A stretch of DNA of 64,000 bases from Flavobacteriaceae bacterium (GCA_013214625.1 JABSPO010000007.1:7805-71804), one strand, 5' to 3'; positions 9,408 through 50,768 are shown, numbered from the stretch's first letter. Translations and numbers: made by a program. The notes: a model not told the origin generated them from the letters alone.

Positions 9408-9415
9408 TGGTCACG

Positions 9416-10444: not shown

Positions 10445-10697
10445 AAGCGTTTGGTGTATTTAAAGGGTAAAACGTGTTTGAATTGGTAATACCAATTTAT
10501 TTTTTATAATGGCGTATGATAAAATTGAATTAGTTTTTACAAGGTTGAGACAAAATAATTTAGCATAGCCTTAGCTATGATTAAATATTTTAACAAAAAT
10601 ATTGTGAAAAACAATCTGTTTTATGCATCATTTAAAAGTTAAAAAGGTATTGGTTACCAAAGATACTCAATTTAAGGAAAAAATAACATTAAAAAAG

Positions 10698-10730
10698 AAA
10701 ACTCCGTAAAAATATTTTTTACGGAGTTTT
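10698..10730 (-). terminator. Rho-independent terminator downstream of purH
   Basis: AAAACTCCGT / ACGGAGTTTT 10-bp stem, with a T-run following on the minus strand. Confidence 0.8.
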
Positions 10731-10752
10731 TATATGAAATATTAACTATTTC

Positions 10753-12282
10753 TTAGTGCTTAAAATGTCTTGTTCCTGTAAAAACCATAGCAACGTTATT
10801 TTCGTTACAGTAATCAATACTTAATTGATCTTTAATTGACCCTCCTGGTTGAATTACCGCTTTTATCCCTGCCTTATCAGCAATCTCTACACAGTCAGGG
10901 AAAGGGAAAAATGCATCACTTGCCATTACAGCTCCGTTTAAATCAAACTTAAATTTTGTTGCTTTTTCAATTGCTTGATTTAAAGCATCTACTCTAGACG
11001 TTTGTCCTGTTCCACTCGCACACAATTGTTTATTTTTAACCAGTACAATTGTATTCGATTTTGTGTGCTTACAAATTTTAGACGCAAAAATTAAATCTTC
11101 TTTTTGAGCATCAGTAGTTTTCGTATTCGTTTTTTCCTCTAAACCTTGGATTGTATCCGTAATATTATTTCTATCTTGAACCAAAACACCATTCAAACAA
11201 GATCTTACATTTGTCCCTGGCATTTCAATAGTTTTCTGTACTAATAAGATTCTATTTTTCTTCCCTTTAAGAATTTCTTCAGCATCAGCATCAAATCCAG
11301 GAGCAATAACGACTTCACAAAATAATTTATGAATTTCTTCTGCTGTAGCAGCATCTATAACTGTATTTGAAATCAACACTCCTCCAAAAGCAGAAGTAGA
11401 ATCACCTGCCAAGGCATCTACATACGCTTCGCAAATTGTTGCACGTTGTGCAAAACCACAAGCGTTATTATGTTTTAACACTGCAAAGGTTGGCGATTCA
11501 CCTTTGAATTCATCCATTAAACTTACGGCTGCATCAACATCTAATAAGTTATTATAACTTAACTCCTTACCATGTAGCTTGTCAAATATCGCATCAAAAT
11601 CTCCAAAGAAGAATCCTTTTTGATGTGGATTCTCTCCATAACGCAAAGCTTTGCCGTTGTTTTCGCTAATTTTCAATACTGTATCTTCTCCTTCTTGATT
11701 AAAGTAATTGAAAATAGCCGTATCATAGTGAGAAGAAATATTAAATGCTTTTCTAGCAAACTTCTTTCTTTCTGAAATAGATGTATTACCGTTTTTTTCG
11801 TTGATGATATTTAAAAACTCACTATACTGCTCCATTGAAGAAACAATTACAGTGTCTTTAAAATTCTTTGCAGCAGCCCTTATTAAAGATATTCCACCAA
11901 TATCAATTTTTTCAATAATATCTTCTTCAGAAGCACCTGAAGCTACCGTTTTTTCAAACGGATATAAATCAACAATTACTAAATCTAACTGAGGAATATT
12001 ATACTCTTCCATTTCAGCTATATCACCTTCATGATCTTGACGGTTTAAAATCCCTCCAAAAACTTTAGGGTGTAAGGTTTTAACTCTTCCTCCTAAAATT
12101 GAAGGATAGGATGTTGTTTCCTCCACAGGAACTACATTAATTCCTAATTCTTTGATAAACTTTTCAGTTCCACCAGTAGAATAAATAGTAACCCCTAATT
12201 CGTCTAACTTTTTAACGATTGGCGCTAAGCCATCCTTATGAAATACTGAGATTAATGCTGATTTAATTGCCTTTGTAGCCAT
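10753..12282 (-). CDS. purH: Bifunctional AICAR formyltransferase / IMP cyclohydrolase PurH
   Basis: The N-terminus ALISVFHKDGL, STGGT and the C-terminus VFTGTRHFKH are typical PurH. I place the start at ATG 12282 (MATKAIKS) because a -7 box lies inside the longer 12321 ORF. Confidence 0.9.
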   Translation of the reverse strand: MATKAIKSALISVFHKDGLAPIVKKLDELGVTIYSTGGTEKFIKELGINVVPVEETTSYPSILGGRVKTLHPKVFGGILNRQDHEGDIAEMEEYNIPQLDLVIVDLYPFEKTVASGASEEDIIEKIDIGGISLIRAAAKNFKDTVIVSSMEQYSEFLNIINEKNGNTSISERKKFARKAFNISSHYDTAIFNYFNQEGEDTVLKISENNGKALRYGENPHQKGFFFGDFDAIFDKLHGKELSYNNLLDVDAAVSLMDEFKGESPTFAVLKHNNACGFAQRATICEAYVDALAGDSTSAFGGVLISNTVIDAATAEEIHKLFCEVVIAPGFDADAEEILKGKKNRILLVQKTIEMPGTNVRSCLNGVLVQDRNNITDTIQGLEEKTNTKTTDAQKEDLIFASKICKHTKSNTIVLVKNKQLCASGTGQTSRVDALNQAIEKATKFKFDLNGAVMASDAFFPFPDCVEIADKAGIKAVIQPGGSIKDQLSIDYCNENNVAMVFTGTRHFKH

Positions 12283-12318
12283 TTTTTGTTGTGTTGTTGT
12301 TGTTATTTTTGAAAGGTG

Positions 12319-12326
12319 CAAAAGTA
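12319..12326 (-). promoter_or_regulatory. -7 box (TACTTTTG on the minus strand) upstream of purH
   Basis: The forward strand reads CAAAAGTA, 37 nt upstream of ATG 12282. Confidence 0.45.
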
Positions 12327-12361
12327 ATTTTTATCCCCGAAAACACCATACAATAAAACAA

Positions 12362-12850
12362 TTATTTTAGTAATAATTGTTCAATATCTAATCCACTAAG
12401 TAATATAGCAACTTCCTCATTTACAAAAGCTAAGAATTCCTCATCCACTTTTGTAAACGGGTCTATTGTTTTAGAATCAATATCAATTTGCCCCACATTA
12501 ACTCCATCTATAAATAATGGAATCACTATTTCTGCTTTAACAGTAATACTACAAGCGATGTAATTATCTTGAGCACTTACATCCGAAACCACAAAATTAG
12601 AATTACTTTCTGCTACCTGACCACAAATCCCCTTTCCAAACGGAATGACTAAAAGATCTGTAGGCTCTCCAACATAGGCACTTAAATGCAATGTTTTAGA
12701 TTCATGGTTTGCAAAATAAAACCCCACCCAATCATACGCTTCTAAATTATCCTGTAGTAATTGACACACCCCTTTTAGCCTATCGAAAACAGGAATTGTT
12801 ATGTCTTTAGTTATTATTGAAACCAGTGGTTTTAAATCTTCAAATGTCAT
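12362..12850 (-). CDS. GAF domain-containing protein (free Met-R-sulfoxide reductase-like)
   Basis: 162 aa of the YebR/MsrC-like single-GAF family (WVGFY, GICG, IVIPL). Confidence 0.7.
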   Translation of the reverse strand: MTFEDLKPLVSIITKDITIPVFDRLKGVCQLLQDNLEAYDWVGFYFANHESKTLHLSAYVGEPTDLLVIPFGKGICGQVAESNSNFVVSDVSAQDNYIACSITVKAEIVIPLFIDGVNVGQIDIDSKTIDPFTKVDEEFLAFVNEEVAILLSGLDIEQLLLK

Positions 12851-12879
12851 TTAATTATTGTTTTTATAGTAAAAGAATA

Positions 12880-12887
12880 CAAAAGTA
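12880..12887 (-). promoter_or_regulatory. -7 box (TACTTTTG on the minus strand) upstream of the GAF-domain gene
   Basis: The forward strand reads CAAAAGTA, 30 nt upstream of ATG 12850. Confidence 0.45.
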
Positions 12888-12937
12888 TCTAATTATAAAA
12901 GAATTGAAATCAAAAAGTTGTTAATTTGTGTGGCATC

Positions 12938-13477
12938 ATGAAGACACTAATTAAAAAAAACAAACCAGTTATAACCTTTTTAGCTATATTTTTATCTAGC
13001 TACATTCTTTTGTCACTCCTATATCATTTTTTTTTAAACACTGTAAATAGCCCAGATTTTTTTACTAAGTCCGTTTCTGAACAAGTAATACGTTTATTGA
13101 ATTTGATTGATTACCAAACTAATTCAATAATAGACACCTCTAAAGGAACTATTAACCTATTTATGAAAGAACGCAATATTGCTTTTATCGCAGAGGGCTG
13201 CAACGCCATAAGTATCATGATTTTGTTTGTTTCTTTCATTTTCAGTTTTACTAAAAGAATGAAACCCACCTTAATCTTTGTTTCCATAGGATTAATCATC
13301 ATTCATCTTGCAAATATTTTCCGAATCGTAATTCTTATAATATGCTTACATCATTACCCTGAATACTCAAAATACCTACACAGTTACATTTTTCCAGCTA
13401 TGATATATGGCGTTGTATTTCTGTTGTGGATGTTTTGGGTTAATTCATTTAAAAAAGCAAATTCAAGTGGTCTCTAA
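12938..13477 (+). CDS. xrtF: Exosortase family protein XrtF
   Basis: About 180-aa polytopic protein with an exosortase-type Cys motif (IAEGCNAIS), a later conserved Arg (NIFRIV) and His residues. It is followed by the family-specific partner gene. ATG 12938 is preferred over the track's GTG 12926. Confidence 0.75.
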   Translation: MKTLIKKNKPVITFLAIFLSSYILLSLLYHFFLNTVNSPDFFTKSVSEQVIRLLNLIDYQTNSIIDTSKGTINLFMKERNIAFIAEGCNAISIMILFVSFIFSFTKRMKPTLIFVSIGLIIIHLANIFRIVILIICLHHYPEYSKYLHSYIFPAMIYGVVFLLWMFWVNSFKKANSSGL

Positions 13478-13907
13478 ACCCTTTAAAATAATCATTATAA
13501 CCTCTCTTTTTATCCTCCTAGGGTTAGTGAGGGTATTTGAGGATAATTTGTTTTATGATCCGTTTATTCAATTTTACAAACAACTCTATTTCACAAATGA
13601 AGTTCCTAATTTTAATCTTGGTAAATTAATAATACACACTTTTTTCAGATACTCACTTAATAGTATAATTTCAATAACAATACTATTTATAGCTTTTAAC
13701 AAAACAGCTGTTTTACGTTTTTCTTCTATATTTTATGCGATACTATTTATAATCCTTATTTCTTGCTACCTGGTAATAATCATGAACTTCTCAGAAGAAC
13801 TACATCAACTATTTTTTTATATCAGGCGTTTTTTAATACAACCTATTTTTGTACTTGTATTACTACCCGCTTTTTACTATCAACAAAACATCATACATAA
13901 ACAATAA
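13407..13907 (+). CDS. Exosortase F system-associated membrane protein
   Basis: Polytopic protein containing FEDNLFYDPFIQFYK, immediately after xrtF. The track ORF overlaps xrtF by 71 nt. GTG 13467 (giving VSKPFKIIII) is the more likely start. Confidence 0.65.
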   Translation: MALYFCCGCFGLIHLKKQIQVVSKPFKIIIITSLFILLGLVRVFEDNLFYDPFIQFYKQLYFTNEVPNFNLGKLIIHTFFRYSLNSIISITILFIAFNKTAVLRFSSIFYAILFIILISCYLVIIMNFSEELHQLFFYIRRFLIQPIFVLVLLPAFYYQQNIIHKQ

Positions 13908-13921
13908 TAAAATAGTCGCAT

Positions 13922-13952
13922 AAAAAAACCTACGCTAAGCGTAGGTTTTTTT
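13922..13952. terminator. Bidirectional terminator between the xrtF partner gene and skp
   Basis: A7-CCTACGC-TAA-GCGTAGG-T7. Confidence 0.85.
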
Positions 13953-13973
13953 AATATTACGAAAAGTAATGAT

Positions 13974-14483
13974 TTACATTCCCAATTCTTTTTTAACGTC
14001 CTCCAATAAGTTTGGACCATCAGCTAAAATTAATCCAGAACCTGCAGTTGAATCTACTACATATTGGTACCCTTTAGCTCTAGCTACCTTTTGAATAGCT
14101 ACACGTGCTTTTTCCATAATAGGCTTGATTAACCCTTCTTGTCTTTTACCCATTTCTTGCTGAGCATTTTGTTCGTACTTTAATACATTATCACGCATTC
14201 CTTGTACTTCCTGAGCTCTCTGACCATTAACCTCATCTGTTTTACTAGACGCTTCAGCTTGATACTGCTTCATTTTATTTTGAAGCTCTGTAGCCATCGT
14301 TTGTAAATCAGCCTGATACGTTTTAGTTAACTTCTCTAACTGATTTTGTGCCGCCTTCATTTCTGGCATAGCTGCAATTAATTCTTGAGTATCTATATGA
14401 GCTACTTTGCTTTGTGCAGATGTTAAACTAGTTGCTCCTAAAAATAATATTGATGCAACTAATAGTGTTTTAATTTTCTTCAT
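13974..14483 (-). CDS. OmpH/Skp-family periplasmic chaperone
   Basis: Signal peptide followed by a coiled-coil Q/E/K-rich body, downstream of bamA. The start is taken as the second MKKIKTLL (ATG 14483). Confidence 0.85.
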   Translation of the reverse strand: MKKIKTLLVASILFLGATSLTSAQSKVAHIDTQELIAAMPEMKAAQNQLEKLTKTYQADLQTMATELQNKMKQYQAEASSKTDEVNGQRAQEVQGMRDNVLKYEQNAQQEMGKRQEGLIKPIMEKARVAIQKVARAKGYQYVVDSTAGSGLILADGPNLLEDVKKELGM

Positions 14484-14502
14484 TTTATAATTTATTAAGT
14501 GT

Positions 14503-15321
14503 TTATTTATTTTCTTCATTATTATCCTCTACAGGCACCCCAGGAGGACCTGTTTTATTATTTCTCTTTGCTTCTTTAACAGCTAACATTTTTCTACGCT
14601 TCTCGTCAAAGGCTTTCTTTCTAGCTTCTTTATCTGCTAAAACTTTTTTTCTTTTTTCATCAAGAACTCGTTGTCTTTCAGCTTTCCTATCTTCTGCAGC
14701 TTTTTTCCTTTCGTCAACTTCTTGATTGATTACCGGGATCACATCCTCAGACGCAGCATTCTTTTTAGATTTTCTATCTTTTGCCTGTTGACGTTTTGCT
14801 GTTCTGGTTAGCACCCTAACAATGTAGTCACTCAAATCGTAACGTTTATTGGAATACATCATTACTACATCAGCCGATTTATCAAATATGAAGTCATATT
14901 TTTTCGATTTAGCTAATTCTCGTACTGCAGTTAGTACTTGATCTTGGATTGGCTCAATTAAAGTCCTTTTTTGAATAATCAAATCTCCATTTGGTCCAAA
15001 TCTTTTTTGTTGATAATCTAAAATTTCAGCTTCTTCTATTTTTATTTCTTCTTCTTTTTCTTCAATAAGTTCTTTTGTTAACAAAACACGTTCATTACGC
15101 AAATCCAACTTTTTCTTTTCAATGTCACGAAGCTTTAAATCAATTTCACTTTTCCATTTTTGAACTTTTTGATCTAGTTGCCCTAAAGCTTCATTATACT
15201 CAGGAATATTTTCAAGGATATACTCTGTATCGATGTACCCTATTCTGATATTACTTTTCTGAGCATAACCACTAAATGCAATTACTACTAATAAAACGAT
15301 TAAAAGAACTCTTGTTTTCAT
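14503..15321 (-). CDS. OmpH/Skp-family chaperone with a long K/R/E-rich C-terminal tail
   Basis: 272 aa with a signal peptide and Skp-like coiled coil. The C-terminal ~90 aa are highly charged, with repeated KRKKVLADKEARKK / KRRKMLAVKEAKR units. Confidence 0.8.
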   Translation of the reverse strand: MKTRVLLIVLLVVIAFSGYAQKSNIRIGYIDTEYILENIPEYNEALGQLDQKVQKWKSEIDLKLRDIEKKKLDLRNERVLLTKELIEEKEEEIKIEEAEILDYQQKRFGPNGDLIIQKRTLIEPIQDQVLTAVRELAKSKKYDFIFDKSADVVMMYSNKRYDLSDYIVRVLTRTAKRQQAKDRKSKKNAASEDVIPVINQEVDERKKAAEDRKAERQRVLDEKRKKVLADKEARKKAFDEKRRKMLAVKEAKRNNKTGPPGVPVEDNNEENK

Positions 15322-40048: not shown

Positions 40049-40078
40049 AAACTGCAACAAACCAAAAAACGAATAGTC
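40049..40078 (+). promoter_or_regulatory. Putative ECF-type promoter upstream of sigma 1 (AAACTGCAAC ... GTC)
   Basis: It aligns with 47547-47576 upstream of sigma 2. An AAC-containing block is followed 17 nt later by GTC. No TAnnTTTG box is present. Confidence 0.45.
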
Positions 40079-40103
40079 CTTATTACAACTAACTAACTCC
40101 TAA

Positions 40104-40658
40104 ATGCATCAAAGCGATTTAATTCAGCTTGTAAAACATTGTAAAAAACACAATCAAATAGCACAAATAGCCATTTATGATTTGTTTTTTAAAGCAATGT
40201 ATAATACTGCATTTAGGATAGTACAACAACAAGATTTAGCAGAAGATATTACTCAGGATTCCTTCATTATAGCTTTTTCTAAAGTGAGTAGCCTACAGGA
40301 AGAAGTCACTTTTCCAAAATGGTTAAAACAAATTGTAGTCAATAAAAGTTTAACGCATTTAAAACAAAAAAAAAGATTTTATCCGCTTGATGTTGAAAAA
40401 CTAAATAGTACTATCGATGATGAATATGATCATGAGTTTGACTCGACAAACATTGGAGTTCAAAAAATCATAAAAACAATAAACAGTTTAAAAGACAATT
40501 ACAGAATACTACTCACACTACATTACATAGAAGGATATGATTATGAAGAAATAGTAGAAATTACAGGATTTACGCATACAAACTGCAGAACACTCATATC
40601 AAGAGCCAAAAGTAGTCTGAGAAAAAAATTAGACAAATGTCAGACAATAGCAATATAA
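40104..40658 (+). CDS. ECF-type RNA polymerase sigma factor (module 1)
   Basis: 184 aa. Region 2 is LAEDITQDSF...WL. Region 4 is NYRILLTLHYIEGYDYEEIVEITGFTHTNCRTLISRAKSSLRKKL. It is a paralogue of 47601-48149. Confidence 0.85.
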   Translation: MHQSDLIQLVKHCKKHNQIAQIAIYDLFFKAMYNTAFRIVQQQDLAEDITQDSFIIAFSKVSSLQEEVTFPKWLKQIVVNKSLTHLKQKKRFYPLDVEKLNSTIDDEYDHEFDSTNIGVQKIIKTINSLKDNYRILLTLHYIEGYDYEEIVEITGFTHTNCRTLISRAKSSLRKKLDKCQTIAI

Positions 40659-41203
40659 AACACCTCCTCAATAATCAAGCAAATAAGTTTGATATTGAAG
40701 TTCCTAACTCAGGACATAAAGCTCGGTTTATTGAAAAATTAGCCCGAGAAAATACTCCTGAAAAAAAATTGAATAATAACAAATATTGGTATTTGAATAT
40801 TGCCGCAGCATTTATCATATGTATTGGTTCATTCAGTATATACTACTCAAAGAATAACACTGAAACTAGTGTAGTTAAAACTACCGTTGAAAATCCGTTT
40901 ATTGATATTTCTAACGCTCAATTTCATTTAGAAGGAATTGTAAAACGTGAACTTGTTAAACTAGAACTAGAAAGAAATACAACTACAGAAAATATTATTG
41001 ATGGAGCACTGTCGCAATTAGACTTTCTAGAACAAGAACAACACAAACTAGAGGGGCAATTAAAAATGAATTATGATAAACGTATCATAAAAGCATTAGT
41101 TGATAATTTTCAATACCGCATACAATTATTAGAAAATGTAATGCAACAAATTGAAATTACTAAAGAAATTAAAATTGAGAATTATGAAACCAACGTTATT
41201 TAA
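40637..41203 (+). CDS. Single-pass membrane protein, putative anti-sigma factor (module 1)
   Basis: It overlaps the sigma gene by 22 nt. It has an N-terminal GHKARF motif, one TM (YLNIAAAFIICIGSFSIYY) and a coiled-coil C-terminal domain. It is a paralogue of 48139-48678. Confidence 0.6.
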   Translation: MSDNSNIKHLLNNQANKFDIEVPNSGHKARFIEKLARENTPEKKLNNNKYWYLNIAAAFIICIGSFSIYYSKNNTETSVVKTTVENPFIDISNAQFHLEGIVKRELVKLELERNTTTENIIDGALSQLDFLEQEQHKLEGQLKMNYDKRIIKALVDNFQYRIQLLENVMQQIEITKEIKIENYETNVI

Positions 41204-41347
41204 ATCAATATTATTGTCATAAAACACAATATTTGAATTAATCAAATCACTTTTCGTCAGAGTTAAATCTTAAAGAATATGCCCACTGGTGGGTTTGAGT
41301 AACCAAAGGTTACATGTGACCAGTAAAAACAAATAAAAATACACATC

Positions 41348-42445
41348 ATGAAATTATTTAACATAAACCTACTTTGTTTTTTATTCCTTTTGCCGATAAT
41401 GGGTTTTTCTGGGAATGGTTTAAAAAAAGGAAAGCACATAGAAGAAAAGAGAATTCATAAAGAATTTAAGTTTGTTGAAGGTATGCTTTTAAATATTCAT
41501 AATTCATACGGAAATATTGACATTACTGCCTGGGACGGCAATAAAATAATTATTGATGTTTTAGTGATAGTTAATGGTGAAAGTGAAGCTGATGCTAAAC
41601 AATTGATCAATAAAATTGATGTTAGCTATAGTGTTAATCGTAAGGATGGAATTGTTACACTATTAACAAAAAAAGAAACCTACAAGCACAAAGATTATAG
41701 GGAAGTTCATTACCAAGTAAAAGTACCTAAAAGCTGCCATTTAAATATTACTAATAATTATGGAAATATTTCAATAGACGAATCAGAAGCTTCCATCTCT
41801 TTGAAAACCTATTACGGAAATATTAAAGCTGGTAGATTAATGGGCACTTCAAAAATAGAAACTTCTTTTTCTCAACGAAATACGTTTGAATACATTAAAA
41901 ACGGAGCTATAAAAGGACAATTTTGTGACTATACTATAAAAAATGCTGAAACATTGGACATTGTTGAAATGACTTCTTCTAATGGAATGATTAATAATGT
42001 AGATCACTTAAAGTACAAATGTAATTACGGCTCATTAATTATTGAAAATGTAAATACTTCTATTGATGGTAAGGGAGAATACCTAACTACCAATATTGAA
42101 AATTGTTTCGCTACAGAAAAAATAGAAATAGAAGCATATTACGGCTATGTTGACATCAAAAATTGGAATAATTCGTCTGCTGTGTTTGACATTGACAATG
42201 CAAAATTAGCTTTAGGATATAATCCTGAAATACCCTTCGCTTTTAACTTACTTACTAAAGGTTCTACTACTGAATCCATCATAAATTCAATTCCACCAGA
42301 ACTTAAAGGTTGTCATTGTGATGACAAAGGAAAGAACCAAAGATATTGCGGGTATTACATTGAAGAATCACGTGAAAATTACATGCTGTTAAAAATAACC
42401 AATGGAATGTTACGAATCAGAAAATCTGCGTCAATCATAAATTAA
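41348..42445 (+). CDS. Secreted beta-strand-repeat protein (DUF4097 / putative adhesin-like) (module 1)
   Basis: Signal peptide. Repeated YGNI-type strands: SYGNIDITAW, NNYGNISID, YYGNIKAG, NYGSLIIEN, YYGYVDIKNW. Confidence 0.6.
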   Translation: MKLFNINLLCFLFLLPIMGFSGNGLKKGKHIEEKRIHKEFKFVEGMLLNIHNSYGNIDITAWDGNKIIIDVLVIVNGESEADAKQLINKIDVSYSVNRKDGIVTLLTKKETYKHKDYREVHYQVKVPKSCHLNITNNYGNISIDESEASISLKTYYGNIKAGRLMGTSKIETSFSQRNTFEYIKNGAIKGQFCDYTIKNAETLDIVEMTSSNGMINNVDHLKYKCNYGSLIIENVNTSIDGKGEYLTTNIENCFATEKIEIEAYYGYVDIKNWNNSSAVFDIDNAKLALGYNPEIPFAFNLLTKGSTTESIINSIPPELKGCHCDDKGKNQRYCGYYIEESRENYMLLKITNGMLRIRKSASIIN

Positions 42446-42519
42446 CACATATCTTTTATCAATACTATTTACTATTACTTTTATAAAGTGATTAGGTTAT
42501 CCTATGCAAAATAAAATCA

Positions 42520-42606
42520 ACCCCCTTGACCAAAGGACGCGAGGTATGCTTCTGAAAACACATTTTTTAATTTGATGGTATCCTCGGGGGATTAAACACT
42601 CAGGCA
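42520..42606 (+). other. GC-rich conserved intergenic element, copy A (candidate structured RNA or repeat)
   Basis: It shares ordered blocks with 53321-53440: AGGTATG, CATTTTTT, and TCGGG..GGG.ATTAAAC.ACT..GGC. CCCCC (42521-25) can pair with GGGGG (42586-90), and GAGG (42541-44) with CCTC (42582-85). Confidence 0.35.
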
Positions 42607-42735
42607 ACTATTTATATAAAATCAACGTCTTATAATTAATAACAATAAACACATTCAGTAATCTTAAGTTTTTATTGGCAGCAAACCAGTCAGATAAAAC
42701 TAATTTTAACTAATCAAAAACAAAAAACTAACTCA

Positions 42736-45204
42736 ATGAAAAAAACAATTCTTACTTACTTATTATTCCTTGGAGCAATAACCAGTATAACCGCTCAAAT
42801 TAAAGGGACAATTACGGGTCTAAACCAAGAAGTACTAACCAACGTAAACATCTACTTAGCTGACACCTATACAGGAACAACAACAAATACCAATGGAGCA
42901 TATGAATTAGGCCTTGCGAAAACAGGTGTTTATACTGTTGTGTTTCAGTACTTAGGATACAAAACGGTAAAAAAGAAAATTTCAATCACCAAATTTCCTC
43001 ACACACTTGATATTACTTTAGAAGAAAGTGAAGTGTCCTTAGATGTGGTGAACATCAGCACTAAAACTGATCCTGCTTTAGCGATAATTAAAAAAACAAT
43101 TGCCCAACAAAAACAAAATCTATCTCGTATAAAGGAATACACTTGTGATTTTTATTCCAAAGGAATTTACAGTATAAAAAACGCTCCTAAAAAAATGTTC
43201 GGGCAAGATATGGACGACTTTTTTGTGGGCTTAGATTCTGCTCGAAATGGAATTGTTTACCTATCTGAAACCATGTCAAAAGTGAAATTTAAAGCGCCAA
43301 ACAACTTTAAAGAACACATGATAGCTTCTAAAGTAAGTGGAAAAAAACAAGGCTTTAGTTTTAATTCGGCTTCAGAATTTAACTTCTCTTTTTATGACAA
43401 TACTATTGAACTAGAAGAAACGGAAGTGATTTCCCCGTTAGCAAAATTTGGCTTGTCATATTATAAGTATTCCCTGGAAGATTTATTTTATGAAGATGGT
43501 ATTGCTATTAACAAAATAAAGGTCACCCCAAAACGACCACAGGACAAAGTATTTGAAGGCTATGTATATATTGTTGATGAACAATGGGAATTATATGGTG
43601 TTGACTTGAAAGTAACAGGAAAACAATTGCAAAGCATTGCTTTTGAAGAAATGGTCATCAAGCAAAACTTCAGAAACGACCCCAATAATGATTTCTGGAC
43701 CATGATTTCACAAACTATGGATCTTAAATTCAAGTTTTTAAAGCTACAAGGTGACGGAACTTTTACTGCTATGTATAGCAATTATAATTTCAGTCCTGAA
43801 TTCGATAAAAAATCATTTACCAAAGAAGTGTTTTTGGTTGAAAAGGGAGCTAATGAAAAAGAAGAATCCTATTGGGAATACAACAGACCAATACAATTGA
43901 CTCATGCTGAAAAAAAGGATTATAAGTTTAAAGATAGTGTTCAGGTTATTCGCGAATCAAGAGCATACCTGGATTCTATCGACAAAAAGAATAATAAATT
44001 TAAACTAGGTGATTTGGTAATGGGATATAATCATAGGAACAGTTATAAAAAATGGTCATGGGGTATAGACTCGCCGTTATTTGCCGTACAATACAATACA
44101 ATTCAAGGCTGGAATAGTGATGTTAATTTATATTACTACAAATGGAATGAGGAAAAAGGAAGTAGAACCCGTTTGTCTACTAAAATAAACTACGGAGTAT
44201 CAGATGAACAATTTAGATTGTCTGGTAGTTTCTATAAAATGTTTAATAACTTTTCAAGACCTGTATTAAGTATTTCTGGGGGAAGAAAACTGAATCAGTT
44301 TAACAGTTCGGAACCAATAAAACCAATTGAAAACTCCATAAGCACCTTGTTTTTTGAGCATAACTATGCAAAGTTTTACGACAATACTTTCGGTAAAGCT
44401 TCTTTTGGAAAAGAACTATTCAACGGTTTTAGAACTACACTAACTGCTTCTCATGAAATTAGAAAACCAGTAATCAATACTACTGATTATGTTATTTTAA
44501 ATGATGAGAACAAAAACTATACTTCAAATAATCCATTGTCACCAACTGACTTCTCTCCTAGTTTTAAAAAAAACAACATCAGCAAATTAAAACTAAACGC
44601 ACGATACAGACTGGGACAGGAATACAGTACTTACCCTAATGGAAAATACAATGATAGTTATTCTAGTGAAAAACCTTTATTCAGCCTTGGTGTAGAAAGT
44701 GCTGTAGCAGCCAGTAATTCTGATTACAAATACAGTTTATTTACTGGAGAAATAGCTCAAAAGATAACATTGTCAAATAAAGGAAAATTCCGATACAATG
44801 TAAGTGGAGGACTATTTGCTGATGCTAAAAACGTTTCATTTATCGATTTCAAACATTTCAATGGTAATCAAACACATTTCACTCAAAGTGATGCGTTAAA
44901 AAAGTTTACACTGTTGCCATACTACGCTTTAAGCACGAATAAAAATTATGCGGAAATTCATGTTGAACATAATTTCAAGGGATACATTTTAGGGAAGATT
45001 CCGTTATTAAATAAACTTAATTTCAACCTAGTACTATCTAGCCATACCGCAATTTTAGAAGGATCAAAACCATATAGCGAATATGCTGTTGGGTTAAGCA
45101 ATGTTGGCTGGGGTAAAGTACGAATTTTAAGAGTTGACTTTGTAAAATCATTCCATAACGGAATTTCAGAAACCGGATTGATATTCGGGGTAAAACTAAA
45201 CTAA
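42736..45204 (+). CDS. CarboxypepD_reg-domain outer-membrane protein (DUF5686-like)
   Basis: 822 aa with a signal peptide. The N-terminal Ig-like domain reads IKGTITG...NVNIYLADTYTGTTTNTNGAYEL...GYKT. The C-terminal region is large and beta-rich. Confidence 0.6.
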   Translation: MKKTILTYLLFLGAITSITAQIKGTITGLNQEVLTNVNIYLADTYTGTTTNTNGAYELGLAKTGVYTVVFQYLGYKTVKKKISITKFPHTLDITLEESEVSLDVVNISTKTDPALAIIKKTIAQQKQNLSRIKEYTCDFYSKGIYSIKNAPKKMFGQDMDDFFVGLDSARNGIVYLSETMSKVKFKAPNNFKEHMIASKVSGKKQGFSFNSASEFNFSFYDNTIELEETEVISPLAKFGLSYYKYSLEDLFYEDGIAINKIKVTPKRPQDKVFEGYVYIVDEQWELYGVDLKVTGKQLQSIAFEEMVIKQNFRNDPNNDFWTMISQTMDLKFKFLKLQGDGTFTAMYSNYNFSPEFDKKSFTKEVFLVEKGANEKEESYWEYNRPIQLTHAEKKDYKFKDSVQVIRESRAYLDSIDKKNNKFKLGDLVMGYNHRNSYKKWSWGIDSPLFAVQYNTIQGWNSDVNLYYYKWNEEKGSRTRLSTKINYGVSDEQFRLSGSFYKMFNNFSRPVLSISGGRKLNQFNSSEPIKPIENSISTLFFEHNYAKFYDNTFGKASFGKELFNGFRTTLTASHEIRKPVINTTDYVILNDENKNYTSNNPLSPTDFSPSFKKNNISKLKLNARYRLGQEYSTYPNGKYNDSYSSEKPLFSLGVESAVAASNSDYKYSLFTGEIAQKITLSNKGKFRYNVSGGLFADAKNVSFIDFKHFNGNQTHFTQSDALKKFTLLPYYALSTNKNYAEIHVEHNFKGYILGKIPLLNKLNFNLVLSSHTAILEGSKPYSEYAVGLSNVGWGKVRILRVDFVKSFHNGISETGLIFGVKLN

Positions 45205-45226
45205 TAACTAAAACTAACTTATCATT

Positions 45227-46399
45227 ATGACAACAACAGCCAACCGGTGGTCAAACACTAAAAAAGCAGGAGTAGTATTTTTAGCTATTTTTCTAATATT
45301 CCAGTTAATCCCTATAGATTGGTTGACAAATTTATTCGGAAAAAACATATTACAAATAGAAGGGTTTCAAAAAATAAAAATGACTGGAAGTGGCGATACA
45401 ACTTTCGATTATGTAGCCTTATTATTGATTTTTATCATCGGCACAATAAGCTTCATTACAACTTACTTTCTAGAAATAAAGCAATCTATTGCTGAGAACA
45501 TTTACGCATACACAGAGGTGTACATGCGATACTTTTTAGGAATAATGCTTATTGCATACGGGCTTGCGAAACTGACAGAATCTGGTCAATTTCCAGAACC
45601 GGGATTTGGAAGGTTAAACCAGACTTATGGAGAATCATCTCCTATGGGATTGGTATGGGCTTTTATGGGGTCGTCAAGAGCTTATACCATATTTGCAGGT
45701 TTTTTTGAAATTATACCTGGGCTTTTATTGTTGTTCAGAAAAACAAAGCTAATAGGGGCTTTAATGGCAATTACTGTAATGCTAAATATTGTATTATTAA
45801 ACTTTTGCTATGATATACCTGTGAAGTTATTTTCATCCCTACTATTAATTATAGCAATTATAATAGCCTATCCAAATATAAAAATTATAGCATGTTTTTT
45901 AATGGGAGATGTTACTGCAAAACTTAAAAAAAGTAAAGAAATTATCCTACCTAAAAAATGGATGAAGATTTCTTCCAGAGTATTACAAATAATTTTAATA
46001 TTAGCTATGCCTATTGCAAATATCATAGAAACGTATATGTATCCTTTGGGTGAAGAAAGTGATTTGAGTGGATTATATACAAATATGTCAGAGTCTTCTT
46101 CAAACTCAATTAAATGGGATAAATTAATTATTGACGAAAAATTTGAATACGCTTCTATTGAAACTGGCGAAAAAAAAGAAGGCTTTAATCTAAAGGTTGA
46201 AAGTGATAACCTTATTACATTAACATCATATAAGGATAGTACCAATATACTTAAATTAAAATATTTAACCCTCAGGAAAAACATTGTCAACATAAAGTCA
46301 GGTAATCTATCTGGGGACTTCAGTAAAAAAACAAAAAGTGATTATTTACTATTAAACAGAGGTTTTCACTGGATAAATGAACAAGCGTTTAACAGATAA
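45227..46399 (+). CDS. Polytopic membrane protein (DoxX-like N-terminal half plus a soluble C-terminal domain)
   Basis: 390 aa with about six TM helices. The segment FAGFFEIIPGLLLLFRKTKLIGALMAI resembles the DoxX family. Function unknown. Confidence 0.4.
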   Translation: MTTTANRWSNTKKAGVVFLAIFLIFQLIPIDWLTNLFGKNILQIEGFQKIKMTGSGDTTFDYVALLLIFIIGTISFITTYFLEIKQSIAENIYAYTEVYMRYFLGIMLIAYGLAKLTESGQFPEPGFGRLNQTYGESSPMGLVWAFMGSSRAYTIFAGFFEIIPGLLLLFRKTKLIGALMAITVMLNIVLLNFCYDIPVKLFSSLLLIIAIIIAYPNIKIIACFLMGDVTAKLKKSKEIILPKKWMKISSRVLQIILILAMPIANIIETYMYPLGEESDLSGLYTNMSESSSNSIKWDKLIIDEKFEYASIETGEKKEGFNLKVESDNLITLTSYKDSTNILKLKYLTLRKNIVNIKSGNLSGDFSKKTKSDYLLLNRGFHWINEQAFNR

Positions 46400-46455
46400 A
46401 ACTTATGATACAATTTCTAATCAATAATCGCCATAATTTATTGATTAGTCATTTT

Positions 46456-46481
46456 AAAAATCCGCCACTGTGCGGGTTTTT
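46456..46481 (+). terminator. Terminator after the 45227-46399 membrane protein gene
   Basis: AAAAATCCGC-CACTGT-GCGGGTTTTT. Confidence 0.75.
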
Positions 46482-46574
46482 CTATACAATTTTAGCACAG
46501 ATCAACGTTATTAAACGGAATATTAAATAGCTTTACAAACAACTTATAAAATTAAATTATTTTATAAATATTTT

Positions 46575-47483
46575 ATGATTAAACATCTTTTTACTTTCAT
46601 ATTTATACTATTTTATTTATCAGTAGCTACTGCTCAAAACGAAAGAGACATCATTGTTCATGATTCCCTTTCATATATGGTTATGTTTACAAACTACCCT
46701 CTTGCTAAAAAAATAATTTTAAAGCTTGAAGAAAAATACGGCTATGAACCTGAATTAAAATACCGTTTAATAAGTCAAAGTTTTAAGAATAATGACTTAG
46801 ATTTTTTCAAAAAAGAACTAAGTATTTTAGTAGAAAAATATGGATTTCAGCTTATCTATATGAAAGAAACAGAACCATACTATACAGCTATAATAGAAGG
46901 AGAATTATCCAGTTGGTTTAAAGAAATGTATTTGAAAAAGCATTTTATATGGATGAAAAACAATTTTGACAAACAACTAGATTTAAAAAAACTTAATGAA
47001 ATTGGAGCTAAGGATCAGTCAATGAGGCGATTTATAAGCATCCTTAATAATAATATAACATTAGATTCCATTCAAAAAATAAAATTATACAAATCAGAAA
47101 CTGAATTTGATTTTGAAAACATTGCTGATTTATATCAGATTACCCAAAAATGGAAAAAATATCCTTCTGGTAAGTCCTTTGCTTTAATACAAAGAGGCTT
47201 CGGAATAGCTGAAGGACATAATCTTAAAGCAAAAGATAATTTTGAACGTTTTTGGTTGTTATTTTACCCTTTTTATAAAAAAGCTTATTTAAATAATGAA
47301 ATCTCTTATATTCATTTTAAAAACTATGATAGTTATAGTTATGTGCATTACGGATATCAAAAATTTGGTTTATTAAACATTGAGGAAATCCATGAAACAT
47401 ACATGACTGTAGGATTGAAAGAAATCCCATTAGAGGATTTCGACTTCTACTTTAAAATCTTAAAAGAATTCAATTGGAATTAA
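46575..47483 (+). CDS. Hypothetical secreted protein
   Basis: 302 aa with a signal peptide (FILFYLSVATAQ). I recognise no motif. It is bracketed by two near-identical terminators. Confidence 0.5.
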   Translation: MIKHLFTFIFILFYLSVATAQNERDIIVHDSLSYMVMFTNYPLAKKIILKLEEKYGYEPELKYRLISQSFKNNDLDFFKKELSILVEKYGFQLIYMKETEPYYTAIIEGELSSWFKEMYLKKHFIWMKNNFDKQLDLKKLNEIGAKDQSMRRFISILNNNITLDSIQKIKLYKSETEFDFENIADLYQITQKWKKYPSGKSFALIQRGFGIAEGHNLKAKDNFERFWLLFYPFYKKAYLNNEISYIHFKNYDSYSYVHYGYQKFGLLNIEEIHETYMTVGLKEIPLEDFDFYFKILKEFNWN

Positions 47484-47503
47484 ACTCCTTTTTAAAAACA
47501 CTT

Positions 47504-47529
47504 AAAATCCGCCATTGTGCGGATTTTTT
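47504..47529 (+). terminator. Terminator after the 46575-47483 gene, near-identical to 46456-46481
   Basis: AAAATCCGC-CATTGT-GCGGATTTTTT. Confidence 0.8.
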
Positions 47530-47546
47530 AGTGTTTTATTTTCACT

Positions 47547-47576
47547 AAACTGTAACAATTTAAATATTCAGTTGAC
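47547..47576 (+). promoter_or_regulatory. Putative ECF-type promoter upstream of sigma 2 (AAACTGTAAC ... GAC)
   Basis: It aligns with 40049-40078 at the same distance to the ATG (54 vs 55 nt). Confidence 0.45.
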
Positions 47577-47600
47577 TATAATAACAACTAACTAATACAA

Positions 47601-48149
47601 ATGTCATCAATTAACACCGAATTGTTAATCGCACAATGTAAAAAGCACAATACTCTTGCACAAATGAACTTGTATAAGGCGTATTGCAAAGCAATGTTTC
47701 GTGTCGCTTATAGAATTACACAAAACACCGAATTAGCAGAAGATGTTGTACAAGAAGCTTTTTTAACAGCCTTTGATGATTTACATAAATTAACTGACAG
47801 TAATTCATTTGGCAGCTGGCTTAAACGAATCGTAATTTTTAAAAGCATTAACCTAGTCAAGAAAAACAAAAAACATGCATTCATAAATTTTGACGAAGTA
47901 AGCTATAAAATCCCTGAAGAGAATAGTATTGACGATACTTCAATAACTGATTTAAAACTAAACGAAGTATACAATGCAATAACTAATTTAAAAGAAAATT
48001 ACAGACTAATACTAACCCTGTACTACATTGAAGGGTTTGACTATGAAGAAATAGCTGAGATTACTCAGTTAAGTTATGCCAATTGCAGAACAACCATTTC
48101 TAGAGCAAAAGAAAGTCTAAGAAAAAAACTAACCGTTTATGCATCATAA
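47601..48149 (+). CDS. ECF-type RNA polymerase sigma factor (module 2)
   Basis: 182 aa, containing LAEDVVQEAF and NYRLILTLYYIEGFDYEEIAEITQLSYANCRTTISRAKESLRKKL. Confidence 0.85.
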   Translation: MSSINTELLIAQCKKHNTLAQMNLYKAYCKAMFRVAYRITQNTELAEDVVQEAFLTAFDDLHKLTDSNSFGSWLKRIVIFKSINLVKKNKKHAFINFDEVSYKIPEENSIDDTSITDLKLNEVYNAITNLKENYRLILTLYYIEGFDYEEIAEITQLSYANCRTTISRAKESLRKKLTVYAS

Positions 48150-48678
48150 AACTAAACATAATCCTCATTTTAATCAATCTGAAATTGATGGATTAAATAC
48201 CCCTGAAATGCCATTAGCGCATGAATATAGATTTGAGGAAAAATTGAATAATAGAAAACGTAAAAAATTCATTCCTTTTAAATCAATTGCTGCAGCAGCA
48301 TCAATTATCATAACCTTAGGTGTCGTTTTTATCAAGAAACCAAATGAACAACTAATTGAAGAATCTTTTTCTCCTTCACAGGAAATAACCGAAGTACATC
48401 AATACTATGAAAACATCATTACTAATAAAATAGCCGCTATAAAATCCTCTGAAAATGACGACAATAACATACTGGTCTCTGATGCTATAGCCGAATTAAA
48501 CAATTTAAAACTAGAGGAAGAAAACCTTTTAAAACAATTATTAGAAAATCAGAACAACAGAATTGTAAAAGCATTGTTGACGAATTTTAAAATTAGAATT
48601 CAATTGCTTGAACAAGTTTCACAACAAATAACATCAATTAATCAATTAAAAAACGAACATTATGAAAATCATCTGTAA
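48139..48678 (+). CDS. Single-pass membrane protein, putative anti-sigma factor (module 2)
   Basis: It overlaps the sigma gene by 11 nt. It has an AHEYRF motif and one TM. The C-terminal RIVKALLTNFKIRIQLLEQV matches module 1's RIIKALVDNFQYRIQLLENV. Confidence 0.6.
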   Translation: MHHKTKHNPHFNQSEIDGLNTPEMPLAHEYRFEEKLNNRKRKKFIPFKSIAAAASIIITLGVVFIKKPNEQLIEESFSPSQEITEVHQYYENIITNKIAAIKSSENDDNNILVSDAIAELNNLKLEEENLLKQLLENQNNRIVKALLTNFKIRIQLLEQVSQQITSINQLKNEHYENHL

Positions 48679-49729
48679 CACTATACTATTACTGCTTCTA
48701 ATCCCCGCAGTATGCTTTTCAAACAACGGAAAGAAGAAAGGTAAATATCAAAAAGAAAAAAGTTATCATCAGGAGTTTACTGTAAACCCTGATGCTTTAT
48801 TAGAAATTAACAATCATTTTGGTGACATTAGCATTACTACTTGGAATGAAAATAAAACTGTTATTTCTGCAAACATCTCAGTTAGTGGTAATAACGAAAA
48901 AAAGGTGATTGAAAAAATTAAGCAAATTTCTATCCGATTTACCAATACAAAAAAATTAGTACAAGCCATTACAGAAATTGAAACTAAAAACTGGAGTACT
49001 AACAACTTAACCATTGACATTACCTATGTTATAAAAGCACCTGTTGGCAACAAAATGTTACTTGAAAATAAATACGGTAACATCAATTTAAATCACCTAA
49101 ACAATAAAGCAACTATATCCTGCAAATACGGATCAATTGACATTGGAAAACTAAACCATTCAGACAATGAAATTAACTTAAAGTATTCAGAAAACTCATC
49201 AATTCAATACATAAAAAATGGAGTTATAAGTAGTAAATACTCAACTATTACTATTGATAAAACTGATGCCTTGGTTATAAATGCTGATTATACAAACACC
49301 TACATCGGAAGTGCTGACATTATTGAGTTTGAAGGGAAACATGGTGATTTAAACATCAATCAAATTAGGAATTTAGTAATTGACGGAAACTATTTAAAAA
49401 TTAAATTAAACGAATTACTAAATACCTTGAATATAGATACTTCCTATAGCACAATCAATGTTAATCAAATCAAAAAACACTTTCAAAAAATAAATATTGT
49501 TTCTCAATATTCAACTATTGCTTTGAAGTACAATCCAGACACATCTTTTAAATTTAACATTTTAACCAATTATGGTAATTTTAAATACAATGACAATTTA
49601 ATAATATCATCGTTAAGAGAATCAAAGAAAAGCAAAGCCTATTCTGGACATACAAATAACAATACAAGCCTGAACCATATTGGAATAGAATCCGACTATA
49701 CAAATGTGATCTTAAATAATATTGATTAA
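48662..49729 (+). CDS. Beta-strand-repeat (DUF4097-like) putative lipoprotein (module 2)
   Basis: It overlaps the upstream gene by 17 nt and has a lipobox-like PAVC. It contains HFGDISITTW, NKYGNINLN and KYGSIDIGK repeats. Confidence 0.6.
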   Translation: MKIICNTILLLLLIPAVCFSNNGKKKGKYQKEKSYHQEFTVNPDALLEINNHFGDISITTWNENKTVISANISVSGNNEKKVIEKIKQISIRFTNTKKLVQAITEIETKNWSTNNLTIDITYVIKAPVGNKMLLENKYGNINLNHLNNKATISCKYGSIDIGKLNHSDNEINLKYSENSSIQYIKNGVISSKYSTITIDKTDALVINADYTNTYIGSADIIEFEGKHGDLNINQIRNLVIDGNYLKIKLNELLNTLNIDTSYSTINVNQIKKHFQKINIVSQYSTIALKYNPDTSFKFNILTNYGNFKYNDNLIISSLRESKKSKAYSGHTNNNTSLNHIGIESDYTNVILNNID

Positions 49730-49787
49730 ACTTTCAAATAGACATAATATTTGATACTTTTTCATCGTTGTATAAAAAACAATCTAA

Positions 49788-50768
49788 ATGATTCAAAAAA
49801 CATTACTTGCCTTTTGTATACTATTAAGTACAATTTGCTTCGGCCAAATAACAATACAGGATAAAGAAACAAAAGAACCTGTTTCATTTGCTACTATTTC
49901 GTTCGGTAACGGAAATGGATTATTTGCTGATGATGAGGGGAAGTTTGTGTTTACCAAAAAACTGTATCGTGATATTGATTCTCTATACATTACTTCTATT
50001 GGATATAAAGAATTGAAAATGGTAACAGACAGCTTACCATCAGTAATAACTCTAGAACCGTTAGCTGATCAATTACAAGAAATCATTGTACAAGTAAAAC
50101 CAAAAGGGAAGTTCAAAATGAGAAAGGTAAAACCAACTTTACATGAAGACTACTTCAAATGTTGGTTACCTACAATAGAATCGGAAATAGCAGTGTTCTT
50201 TCCTAACGAAGAGAAAAAAACAAAACAAATAACGAAACTTTATTTACCCATAAAAACAGAAGCTTCTGACTGGAGCAAACGCAAAAGATCAAACACAAAA
50301 AAACGTTCGTTTTCTACTCTATTTAAAATCAACTTTTACGAAAATAACGAAGGGTTCCCTGGAGATATCCTTAGCTACGAAAAAGTAGTTTTTAGAGTTA
50401 CACAAGAAAGTGAATCTGTTTTTGAACTTGATATTACTAAAAATGATATTTTTATTCCTAAAGAAGGCATCTTTGTTGCAATACAAATTTTAGGGTATAC
50501 CGATAAACTTGGTAAATTACTCCCAAACAAAAAATATCAGGAAGTTAAAACACGTAAAGGAATCGTTAAAGTATCCACTACTTTCCGTCCGTTACTACCG
50601 TTTACTAATGAAATCTCCAGTAAAAGAACCTACATCAAACGCATCTTTTTAAACAACAATAAATGGATTCGTTTTGAAAAGAAAAACATTGCAAATAACA
50701 AACTACTAGCTGCAGGACTAAATAACTACGGAATGGGGATGGAAATGAAAGTGTACCAAAAAAACTAA
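49788..50768 (+). CDS. CarboxypepD_reg-like domain protein (module 2)
   Basis: 326 aa with a signal peptide. The N-terminal domain reads ITIQDKETKEPVSFATISF...DDEGKFVF...SIGYKE. Confidence 0.55.
   Translation: MIQKTLLAFCILLSTICFGQITIQDKETKEPVSFATISFGNGNGLFADDEGKFVFTKKLYRDIDSLYITSIGYKELKMVTDSLPSVITLEPLADQLQEIIVQVKPKGKFKMRKVKPTLHEDYFKCWLPTIESEIAVFFPNEEKKTKQITKLYLPIKTEASDWSKRKRSNTKKRSFSTLFKINFYENNEGFPGDILSYEKVVFRVTQESESVFELDITKNDIFIPKEGIFVAIQILGYTDKLGKLLPNKKYQEVKTRKGIVKVSTTFRPLLPFTNEISSKRTYIKRIFLNNNKWIRFEKKNIANNKLLAAGLNNYGMGMEMKVYQKN

Follow-up and report, generated by a model that had tools for sequence, protein, structure and literature searches.

A probable three-gene extracytoplasmic function sigma factor cassette with a putative Toastrack-type exported protein, in two paralogous copies in a Flavobacteriaceae genome

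Two sigma factor modules in the window

We analysed a stretch of 64,000 nucleotides (nt) from a Flavobacteriaceae bacterium (GCA_013214625.1 JABSPO010000007.1:7805-71804); 'the window' below always means this entire 64-kb stretch. A first reading, made from the sequence only, had described two tandem gene sets in it, each with genes for a sigma factor, a membrane protein of ~180 amino acids (aa), a ~360-aa exported protein with YGNI repeats and a protein with a CarboxypepD_reg-like domain, and had proposed that the four form a trans-envelope signalling module. All ten open reading frames (ORFs) of that reading were recovered on the + strand with the same boundaries. From the evidence below, the window probably contains a three-gene extracytoplasmic function (ECF) sigma factor cassette in two paralogous copies of old origin, module 1 (M1; 40053-42445) and module 2 (M2; 47551-49729), with the following features.

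40053..40079, + strand: module 1 ECF-type promoter candidate, TGCAAC-N17-GTCC, ~25 nt before the start codon of sigma factor 1; position weight matrix (PWM) score 27.4
40104..40658, + strand: ECF sigma factor 1 (184 aa); Sigma70_r2 and Sigma70_r4_2; TIGR02937, 60.6 bits
40637..41203, + strand: anti-sigma candidate 1 (188 aa); predicted cytoplasmic N-terminal ~40 aa with GHxxRFxxKL, one transmembrane (TM) helix, periplasmic three-helix bundle
41348..42445, + strand: exported, putative Toastrack-type beta-helix protein 1 (365 aa); AlphaFold2 (AF2) model with mean predicted local distance difference test (pLDDT) 86.9; signal peptidase I (SPase I) signal peptide
47551..47577, + strand: module 2 ECF-type promoter candidate, TGTAAC-N17-GACT; PWM score 22.8; strict motif match
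47601..48149, + strand: ECF sigma factor 2 (182 aa); Sigma70_r2, Sigma70_r4_2 and Sigma70_ECF; TIGR02937, 85.6 bits
48139..48678, + strand: anti-sigma candidate 2 (179 aa), paralogue of candidate 1
48662..49729, + strand: exported, putative Toastrack-type beta-helix protein 2 (355 aa); signal peptide

Judged from their domain content, with sigma-2 and sigma-4 regions only, both sigma factors are ECF (group IV) sigma-70 factors (TIGR02937 superfamily cutoff, 42.9 bits). They share 44% identity (E=9e-53), in keeping with their earlier description as paralogous ECF sigma factors. The nearest solved relative of sigma 2 is Bacillus subtilis SigW (PDB 5wuq, E=6e-17). The best NCBIfam match was NF058625, the PG0214/GFO_1088 family (88.6 and 96.7 bits for the window's two; 76-93 bits for cassette sigma factors from six other loci). 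Every cassette sigma factor tested scored under the curated 130-bit cutoff of that model, and we rejected membership; the PG0214-0218 literature is therefore not transferable to them. No further ECF sigma genes were found in the window or among 79 loci. On a TARA scaffold (L054, 2634-3284), two ORFs of 100 and 69 aa take the place of the slot-2 sigma gene beside intact anti-sigma and Toastrack genes; this sigma gene may be pseudogenised, or the split may reflect a sequencing error.

The ~180-aa membrane proteins are also paralogous, as had been read (34% identity over the C-terminal 100 aa, E=2e-14). The gene for candidate 2 shares 11 nt with the end of the sigma-2 gene and 17 nt with the beginning of the Toastrack-2 gene. 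At 90% identity, the family forms at least 1,558 clusters, drawn from Flavobacteriia and Bacteroidales; all members are labelled 'hypothetical' and lack a Pfam domain. In the family alignment H27, F31, K34 and L35 show no variation, and R30 almost none (motif GHxxRFxxKL), which bears out the H..RF motif noticed earlier near the N-terminus; A56 and A57 are invariant within the single TM helix, and a C-terminal block, DKR[IV]I.A[ML]I.NFQ.RI.LL, is conserved. The AF2 model of candidate 1 (pLDDT 75) is all-helical; its TM helix spans residues 49-75, and it ends in a three-helix bundle, residues 87-186, that is predicted with confidence (pLDDT 86-94). Among 45 candidates surveyed for topology, Lys plus Arg averaged 4.2 on the N-terminal side of the TM helix and 1.0 on the C-terminal side (N>C in 44 of the 45), indicating a cytoplasmic N-terminus and a periplasmic bundle (N-in/C-out). 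Neither a FecR nor a zinc anti-sigma signature (HxxxCxxC; zf-HC2, RskA) was found by Pfam or NCBIfam, as the first reading had also reported, and the alignment contains no CxxC. Class I or zinc-binding anti-sigma domains (RsiW, RslA and ChrR types) have four helices over ~80-90 aa, and the candidate, with two predicted helices in a cytoplasmic part of ~40 aa, is not of that class. PDB sequence and Foldseek searches with the family profile and model returned only generic helical bundles, none significant.

The YGNI-repeat proteins, too, proved paralogous (30% identity over 315 aa, E=2e-31), and protein 2 shares 35-39% identity with its cassette counterparts in other flavobacterial genera. A profile search retrieved 11,414 representative clusters, 1,769 of them at E<1e-30; family members are nearly all full-length, at ~350 aa. 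The AF2 model is a long beta-helix whose best Foldseek match was 4qrk (E=1.8e-6), followed by 3pet, 3lyc, 3jx8 and 4opw (probability 1.0), all annotated 'putative adhesin'; 4QRK and 4OPW were used in defining the Toastrack fold (PMC11237479). Four of 43 family representatives match PF13349, the Toastrack DUF4097 family (best 3e-11), one matches LiaF-like_C and one Toast-rack_PspC-Cterm, while a PDB sequence search with the profile gave no match. On the strength of the fold matches and these peripheral members, we refer to a divergent, putative Toastrack-type protein, and the earlier guess of a DUF4097-like protein thus has support at the fold level.

An SPase I-type signal peptide (…LLA|N…) stands at the N-terminus of all 45 cassette Toastrack proteins surveyed, with no TM helix beyond it, indicating that they are exported. 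No lipobox, type IX secretion system (T9SS) signal or lipoprotein sorting signal for surface display was found among the 45. An intracellular location has been proposed for Toastrack domains (Ravi et al. 2024, PMC11237479), which the cassette proteins with their signal peptides do not fit.

Upstream of both window sigma genes lies AAACTG[C/T]AACAA. More generally, TG[T/C]AAC-N17-[G/A][T/A]C[T/C] precedes the sigma start by ~25-60 nt in 34 of the 42 loci having upstream sequence, and most of the remainder, including Saprospiraceae, have TGTCAC or -10 variants instead; about 2 strict sites per 64 kb are expected by chance. With a PWM built from 36 distinct sites, the M1 and M2 sites were the only strong matches in the window (third-best score, 12.2), and none was found in the window upstream of the neighbouring DUF5686 gene, DoxX-like gene, ORF302 or 326-aa gene. 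By its sequence the element has the classic shape of an autoregulated ECF promoter; that of SigW is TGAAAC-N16-CGTA. A generic sigma-70 promoter scan was uninformative in this AT-rich Bacteroidota DNA (81 found, 74 expected). Two canonical loci, L006 (4093) and L036 (4077), have in common a second promoter-like site of the strict form, TGTAACAAAA…CGTCGTCT, conserved at a distance of ~4.8 kb upstream of the cassette.

Conservation and history of the cassette

A genome scan with an alignment of the Toastrack family (A4) yielded 39 cassette loci, mostly from Flavobacteriaceae with one each from Bacteroidales and Saprospiraceae; the scan used a single peptide pattern, and retrieval is biased towards Flavobacteriaceae. 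The order sigma factor, anti-sigma candidate, Toastrack protein is intact in all 38 complete loci, and the 39th, which ends inside the anti-sigma gene with its sigma gene out of view, agrees where visible. In every locus the anti-sigma candidate gene directly follows the sigma gene, overlapping or almost touching it, and the anti-sigma and Toastrack genes overlap in 38/39 loci, mostly by 17 or 23 nt, which suggests stoichiometric co-production of the two proteins. A fourth gene on the same strand, present in 33/39 loci, encodes a ~241-aa DUF2807/GIN Toastrack protein (PF10988, 4.7e-50), and this canonical operon is mostly divergent from lon. There is no DUF2807 gene in the window. The usual fourth gene elsewhere is thus this DUF2807 protein, not the CarboxypepD_reg/DUF5686 protein of the first reading.

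In neighbour-joining (NJ) trees of the sigma factors and of the anti-sigma candidates, the M1 and M2 clades are sisters and stand apart from the canonical cassette linked to lon; M1 is a long branch in the Toastrack tree. Pseudofulvibacter geojedonensis has the same M1-DUF5686-M2 order, followed by a 327-aa protein. Sister clades and a shared order in two genera fit an old local duplication with later differential loss, in line with the earlier suggestion that the modules duplicated in place.

The cassette is spread across Bacteroidota and is unstudied, and both partner families lack a Pfam or NCBIfam model. Our literature searches found no description of an operon of ECF sigma factor, anti-sigma factor and periplasmic Toastrack protein in Bacteroidota. 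It is an uncharacterised variant of ECF sigma/anti-sigma signalling and not a new signalling principle.

The cassette shared by loci L049 and L040 is a natural chimera with its breakpoint at the anti-sigma TM helix. Taken in the order sigma factor, anti-sigma N-terminal segment, periplasmic domain and Toastrack protein, it is 56, 36, 76 and 81% identical to M2 of the window, and 80, 67, 35 and 31% identical to a further cassette type, M3 (L045). The same division appeared in partial correlations of identity over 50 cassettes (1,225 pairs): the N-segment followed the sigma factor (partial r 0.46) and not the Toastrack protein (-0.01), whereas the periplasmic domain followed the Toastrack protein (0.54) more than the sigma factor (0.21). 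The pattern is predicted by, and supportive of, a two-interface model in which the sigma factor would meet the N-segment in the cytoplasm and the helical bundle would meet the Toastrack protein in the periplasm.

Such exchange could go further. It is conceivable, if doubtful, that the cassette consists of a swappable receptor unit (bundle and Toastrack protein) and a swappable output unit (sigma factor and N-terminus) that meet at the TM helix, with strain-level turnover of cassettes at a single hot spot driven by diversifying selection; that envelope-targeting antagonists (phage, bacteriocins or contact-dependent toxins) exert this selection is an equally speculative proposal. If true, the cassette would be a polymorphic envelope-surveillance system of Bacteroidota, and periplasmic Toastrack proteins would have their first assigned role in a diderm.

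Proposed mechanism and alternatives

We consider it rather likely that the cassette joins a membrane-held sigma factor to a Toastrack co-sensor, the neighbouring genes not being components. By analogy with Dma1, whose first 40 residues hold Das1, the ~40-aa cytoplasmic segment would hold the sigma factor at the membrane. The Toastrack protein would bind the periplasmic bundle as a co-sensor or gatekeeper, as in the analogous pairs RseB/RseA and LiaF/LiaS. An envelope signal would then disturb the complex, the anti-sigma factor would be removed, probably by regulated intramembrane proteolysis, and the freed sigma factor would transcribe its own operon together with unlinked targets. RseA and RsiW contain alanine-rich cryptic degrons that are exposed after site-2 cleavage; the invariant Ala-Ala in the TM helix recalls these, as a lead only.

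Several known systems share parts of this arrangement. Dma1-Das1 of Bacteroides thetaiotaomicron and Reo-EcfO of B. fragilis, both ECF21 pairs of Bacteroidota, likewise consist of an ECF sigma factor co-transcribed with a single-helix inner-membrane anti-sigma factor, and the first 40 residues of Dma1 are sufficient for binding Das1 (PMC10927553). The likeness of Dma1 and Reo to the anti-sigma candidate lies in the length and layout of this ~40-residue cytoplasmic part. In Dma proteins a long disordered linker leads to an outer-membrane beta-barrel of eight strands (PMC10927553), whereas the candidate ends in a ~110-aa periplasmic three-helix bundle and is followed by a separate exported Toastrack protein; it had no OMP_b-brl match in Pfam and lacks a Dma-type barrel. 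The B. subtilis pair SigW-RsiW resembles the cassette in its autoregulated operon, promoter shape and single-pass anti-sigma factor, but RsiW has a zinc-binding four-helix anti-sigma domain (HxxxCxxC), which the candidate lacks, and no Toastrack partner. In RpoE-RseA-RseB of Escherichia coli, RseB binds the periplasmic domain of RseA and gates its proteolysis; the analogy would be functional only, with no sequence or fold relationship between RseB and the Toastrack protein or between RseA and the anti-sigma candidate.

A Toastrack protein is likewise genetically coupled to membrane-linked transcription control in LiaF/LiaG-LiaSR, VraT-VraSR and PspC-Toastrack systems, and sigma-factor-linked Toastrack neighbourhoods have been mentioned in general terms only (PMC11237479). 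The Lia/Vra/Psp domains, argued to be intracellular, are often TM-fused (PMC11237479), whereas the cassette protein is free-standing with a cleavable signal peptide and too divergent for detection by Pfam DUF4097; it is coupled to an ECF sigma factor, the Lia and Vra proteins to a two-component system. FecI/FecR/FecA and the ECF/FecR/SusC-like systems of Bacteroidota also pair an ECF sigma factor with a membrane anti-sigma factor and have a CarboxypepD_reg-like protein nearby. Unlike them, the cassette gave no match to FecR, Plug or a TonB-dependent receptor domain, and CarboxypepD_reg proteins do not co-occur with it; the first reading had rightly set the locus apart from that canonical arrangement.

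Some observations weigh against a membrane-held sigma factor with a Toastrack co-sensor. Sigma binding by the ~180-aa protein is proposed by analogy; the protein has no detectable similarity to known anti-sigma domains (Pfam, NCBIfam, PDB sequence, Foldseek), and the two short helices of its N-terminal segment are modelled at a pLDDT of only ~60-67. Plain physical adjacency of the genes would give the same chimera pattern, which is thus supportive and not decisive. The NJ trees carry no bootstrap or other support values. The Toastrack assignment depends on peripheral family members and on fold matches with low TM-scores (0.2-0.49), the window proteins themselves having no Pfam or NCBIfam match, and hhalign found no similarity between the ~360-aa family and the DUF2807 partner family (probability 4.6%). 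Moreover, the Toastrack protein could be an output of the system instead of a regulator.

In that last alternative, the Toastrack-type protein (and the DUF2807 protein) would be made under sigma control as an envelope-protective or adhesin-like product of the periplasm or surface, while the helical bundle senses the signal by itself; we hold it to be unlikely, though a serious candidate. A DUF2807 protein of Porphyromonas gingivalis, PGN_1547, affects biofilm formation and attachment and has been termed an adhesin (PMC10949514), and the 'putative adhesin' label of the solved Toastrack relatives agrees with such a role. Operon membership makes the Toastrack and DUF2807 proteins regulon members by construction, and in M1 a 144-nt insertion uncouples the Toastrack gene with no apparent loss. 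Against a pure output stand the gene overlap in 38/39 loci with the stoichiometry it suggests, the chimera, which keeps each anti-sigma periplasmic domain with its Toastrack type, the regulation of signalling by Toastrack domains in the Lia/Vra systems (PMC11237479) and the missing T9SS or lipoprotein signals for surface display.

It is improbable that the ~180-aa protein serves instead as a co-transcribed membrane scaffold or chaperone for the Toastrack protein, with the sigma factor controlled in another way. The lack of similarity to known anti-sigma domains and the shortness of the cytoplasmic segment (just ~40 aa) would suit such a role, but the gene comes next after the sigma gene in every locus, its GHxxRFxxKL motif is invariant, its N-segment tracks the sigma factor and not the Toastrack protein, and Dma1 and Reo set a precedent for a segment of 40 aa (PMC10927553).

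Bacteroidota encode ~22 ECF sigma factors per genome, the most of any phylum (PMC7826278). Very few of these are understood, and the cassette is widespread (at least 1,558 anti-sigma and 11,414 Toastrack clusters). The cassette links the Toastrack fold, previously associated with Lia/Vra/Psp envelope-stress signalling in Gram-positive bacteria, to a probable periplasmic role next to an ECF anti-sigma candidate in diderms. The conserved promoter is an immediate handle for regulon prediction, and the natural domain-swap chimera offers a testable map of the interacting parts.

Neighbouring genes and other sequence signals

Further features lie between and beside the two modules.

42603..42631, + strand: uncertain ECF-like promoter candidate, GGCAAC-N17-CGTCTT, upstream of DUF5686
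42736..45204, + strand: DUF5686 protein (822 aa); CarbopepD_reg_2 and full-length DUF5686 (797 bits)
47504..47527, + strand: intrinsic terminator hairpin, 9-bp stem then T run, between ORF302 and module 2
49788..50768, + strand: 326-aa protein; CarbopepD_reg_2 match of 27 bits, below the 32-bit cutoff; otherwise unannotated

The full-length DUF5686 match agrees with the earlier description of the 822-aa protein as DUF5686-like, with a CarboxypepD_reg-like domain and no Plug. No Plug or TonB-dependent receptor domain, TonB box or signalling extension was found in it. The first reading had also counted the 822-aa and 326-aa proteins as a fourth pair of module partners. The two are not detectably homologous (BLASTP E=0.72), and the repeated unit thus has three genes, not four. 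Nor did the first reading's assignment of a DoxX-like protein (21 bits, below the Pfam cutoff of 23.6 bits) and an orphan secreted protein (ORF302) to module 1 hold, both genes being variable inserts that are missing or placed otherwise in close relatives.

The fixed frame of the locus is AdoHcyase | ACPS-PcrB … DUF5686 … 326-aa protein-DUF4301-RF-1-like. Within it, L042 and L034 have M1-DUF5686-esterase-(ORF302)-326-aa protein and lack M2; L040, L041 and L049 have DUF5686-M2-326-aa protein and lack M1; and L059 has PcrB-DUF5686-ORF302-326-aa protein with no module whatever. Among 20 more distant DUF5686 loci (25-51% identity), none had a sigma, anti-sigma or Toastrack gene in its flanks, and none of 36 cassette loci outside the window's clade had DUF5686, the 326-aa protein, the DoxX-like protein or ORF302 nearby. 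The DUF5686, 326-aa and DoxX-like proteins and ORF302 are syntenic or variable neighbours, in a locus prone to recombination, and not cassette components, and in annotation the DUF5686 and CarboxypepD_reg proteins should not be assigned to the cassette system. Our literature searches on DUF5686 found no description of this gene arrangement. The co-occurrence of four families expected by the first reading was thus confirmed across genomes for sigma factor, anti-sigma candidate and Toastrack protein and fails for the fourth family, because DUF5686 and the 326-aa gene persist without modules and cassettes without DUF5686; what stands of its envelope-signalling module is an ECF-based unit with uncurated partners, not a four-part trans-envelope system with DUF5686.

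A four-component system with the CarboxypepD_reg outer-membrane proteins (DUF5686 and the 326-aa protein) as surface sensors comparable to SusC/FecA is accordingly the least credible reading, very improbable and already largely refuted by this co-occurrence: although cassettes flank DUF5686 in two genera of the window's clade, mostly still lie beside it in the loci seen, and are joined there by a clade-specific ECF-like promoter before DUF5686 and a 326-aa gene 58 nt after module 2 with no terminator between, the two proteins are unrelated, the 822-aa protein lacks the parts of a transducer and the DUF5686 promoter candidate falls outside the cassette PWM.

That candidate, GGCAAC-N17-CGTCTT, has a -35 block that does not vary among 8 aligned relatives, loci lacking module 1 included, and occurs in the window, L034, L040, L042 and 10 of 14 close metagenomic loci, among them the module-free L059; distant DUF5686 genes have TAnnTTTG-type elements in its place. 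From this conservation, a regulatory link may exist, with DUF5686 at most a clade-specific target of some ECF sigma factor. Downstream of M2, the 58-nt gap and lack of a terminator in the window suggest that the 326-aa gene may be co-transcribed with the module. Throughout the clade, and independently of the presence of cassettes, this gene keeps a stable synteny with DUF4301 and an RF-1/ArfB-like gene. Two tandem DUF5686 genes ~1.5 kb apart were seen in L070, L071 and L074 (about 8000-14900).

The slot after DUF5686 is highly variable, its cargo turning over at strain level, among close relatives whose DUF5686 proteins are 79-91% identical (L044-L059). It holds the M2 type, an M2-like type with a DUF2807 gene (L051, L056), 'M3' (L044-L048, L052-L054) or nothing; an erythromycin-esterase-like gene, ORF302 in differing positions and a DoxX-like gene may also occupy it. 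PADLOC, run because of this variability, gave no credible match. The terminator at 47504-47527 is strong and, from its sequence, isolates module 2. Its hairpin, ATCCGCCAYTGTGCGG, has two copies in the window, one following the DoxX-like gene (46460-46475) and one following ORF302 (47507-47522). In relatives it is found at the junctions of the variable stretch that separates DUF5686 from the 326-aa gene (L040/L041, 9359; L049, 10524; L044, 3984; L050, 12773; L052, 3403), and may serve as a recombination site for cargo exchange.

Two intergenic insertions are common only to the window and its closest relative, L033 (Kordia sp. NORP58): the 144-nt spacer (41204-41347), which contains short palindromes and uncouples the Toastrack 1 gene from the anti-sigma 1 gene, and a ~85-nt GC-rich inverted-repeat segment upstream of DUF5686 (42515-42600). 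Neither has a second copy in the window, an Rfam match or a significant fold, the inverted repeat folding no better than shuffled sequence (z=-0.15), and Rfam searches at gathering and E-value thresholds found no RNA family. Finally, AACTAACT is found 2-12 nt before the start codons of sigma 1 (two overlapping copies; 40087-40098), DUF5686 (42726-42733), the DoxX-like gene (45212-45219) and sigma 2 (47586-47593). These make up five of its seven occurrences in the window, and it may represent a common leader or an element of translation initiation.

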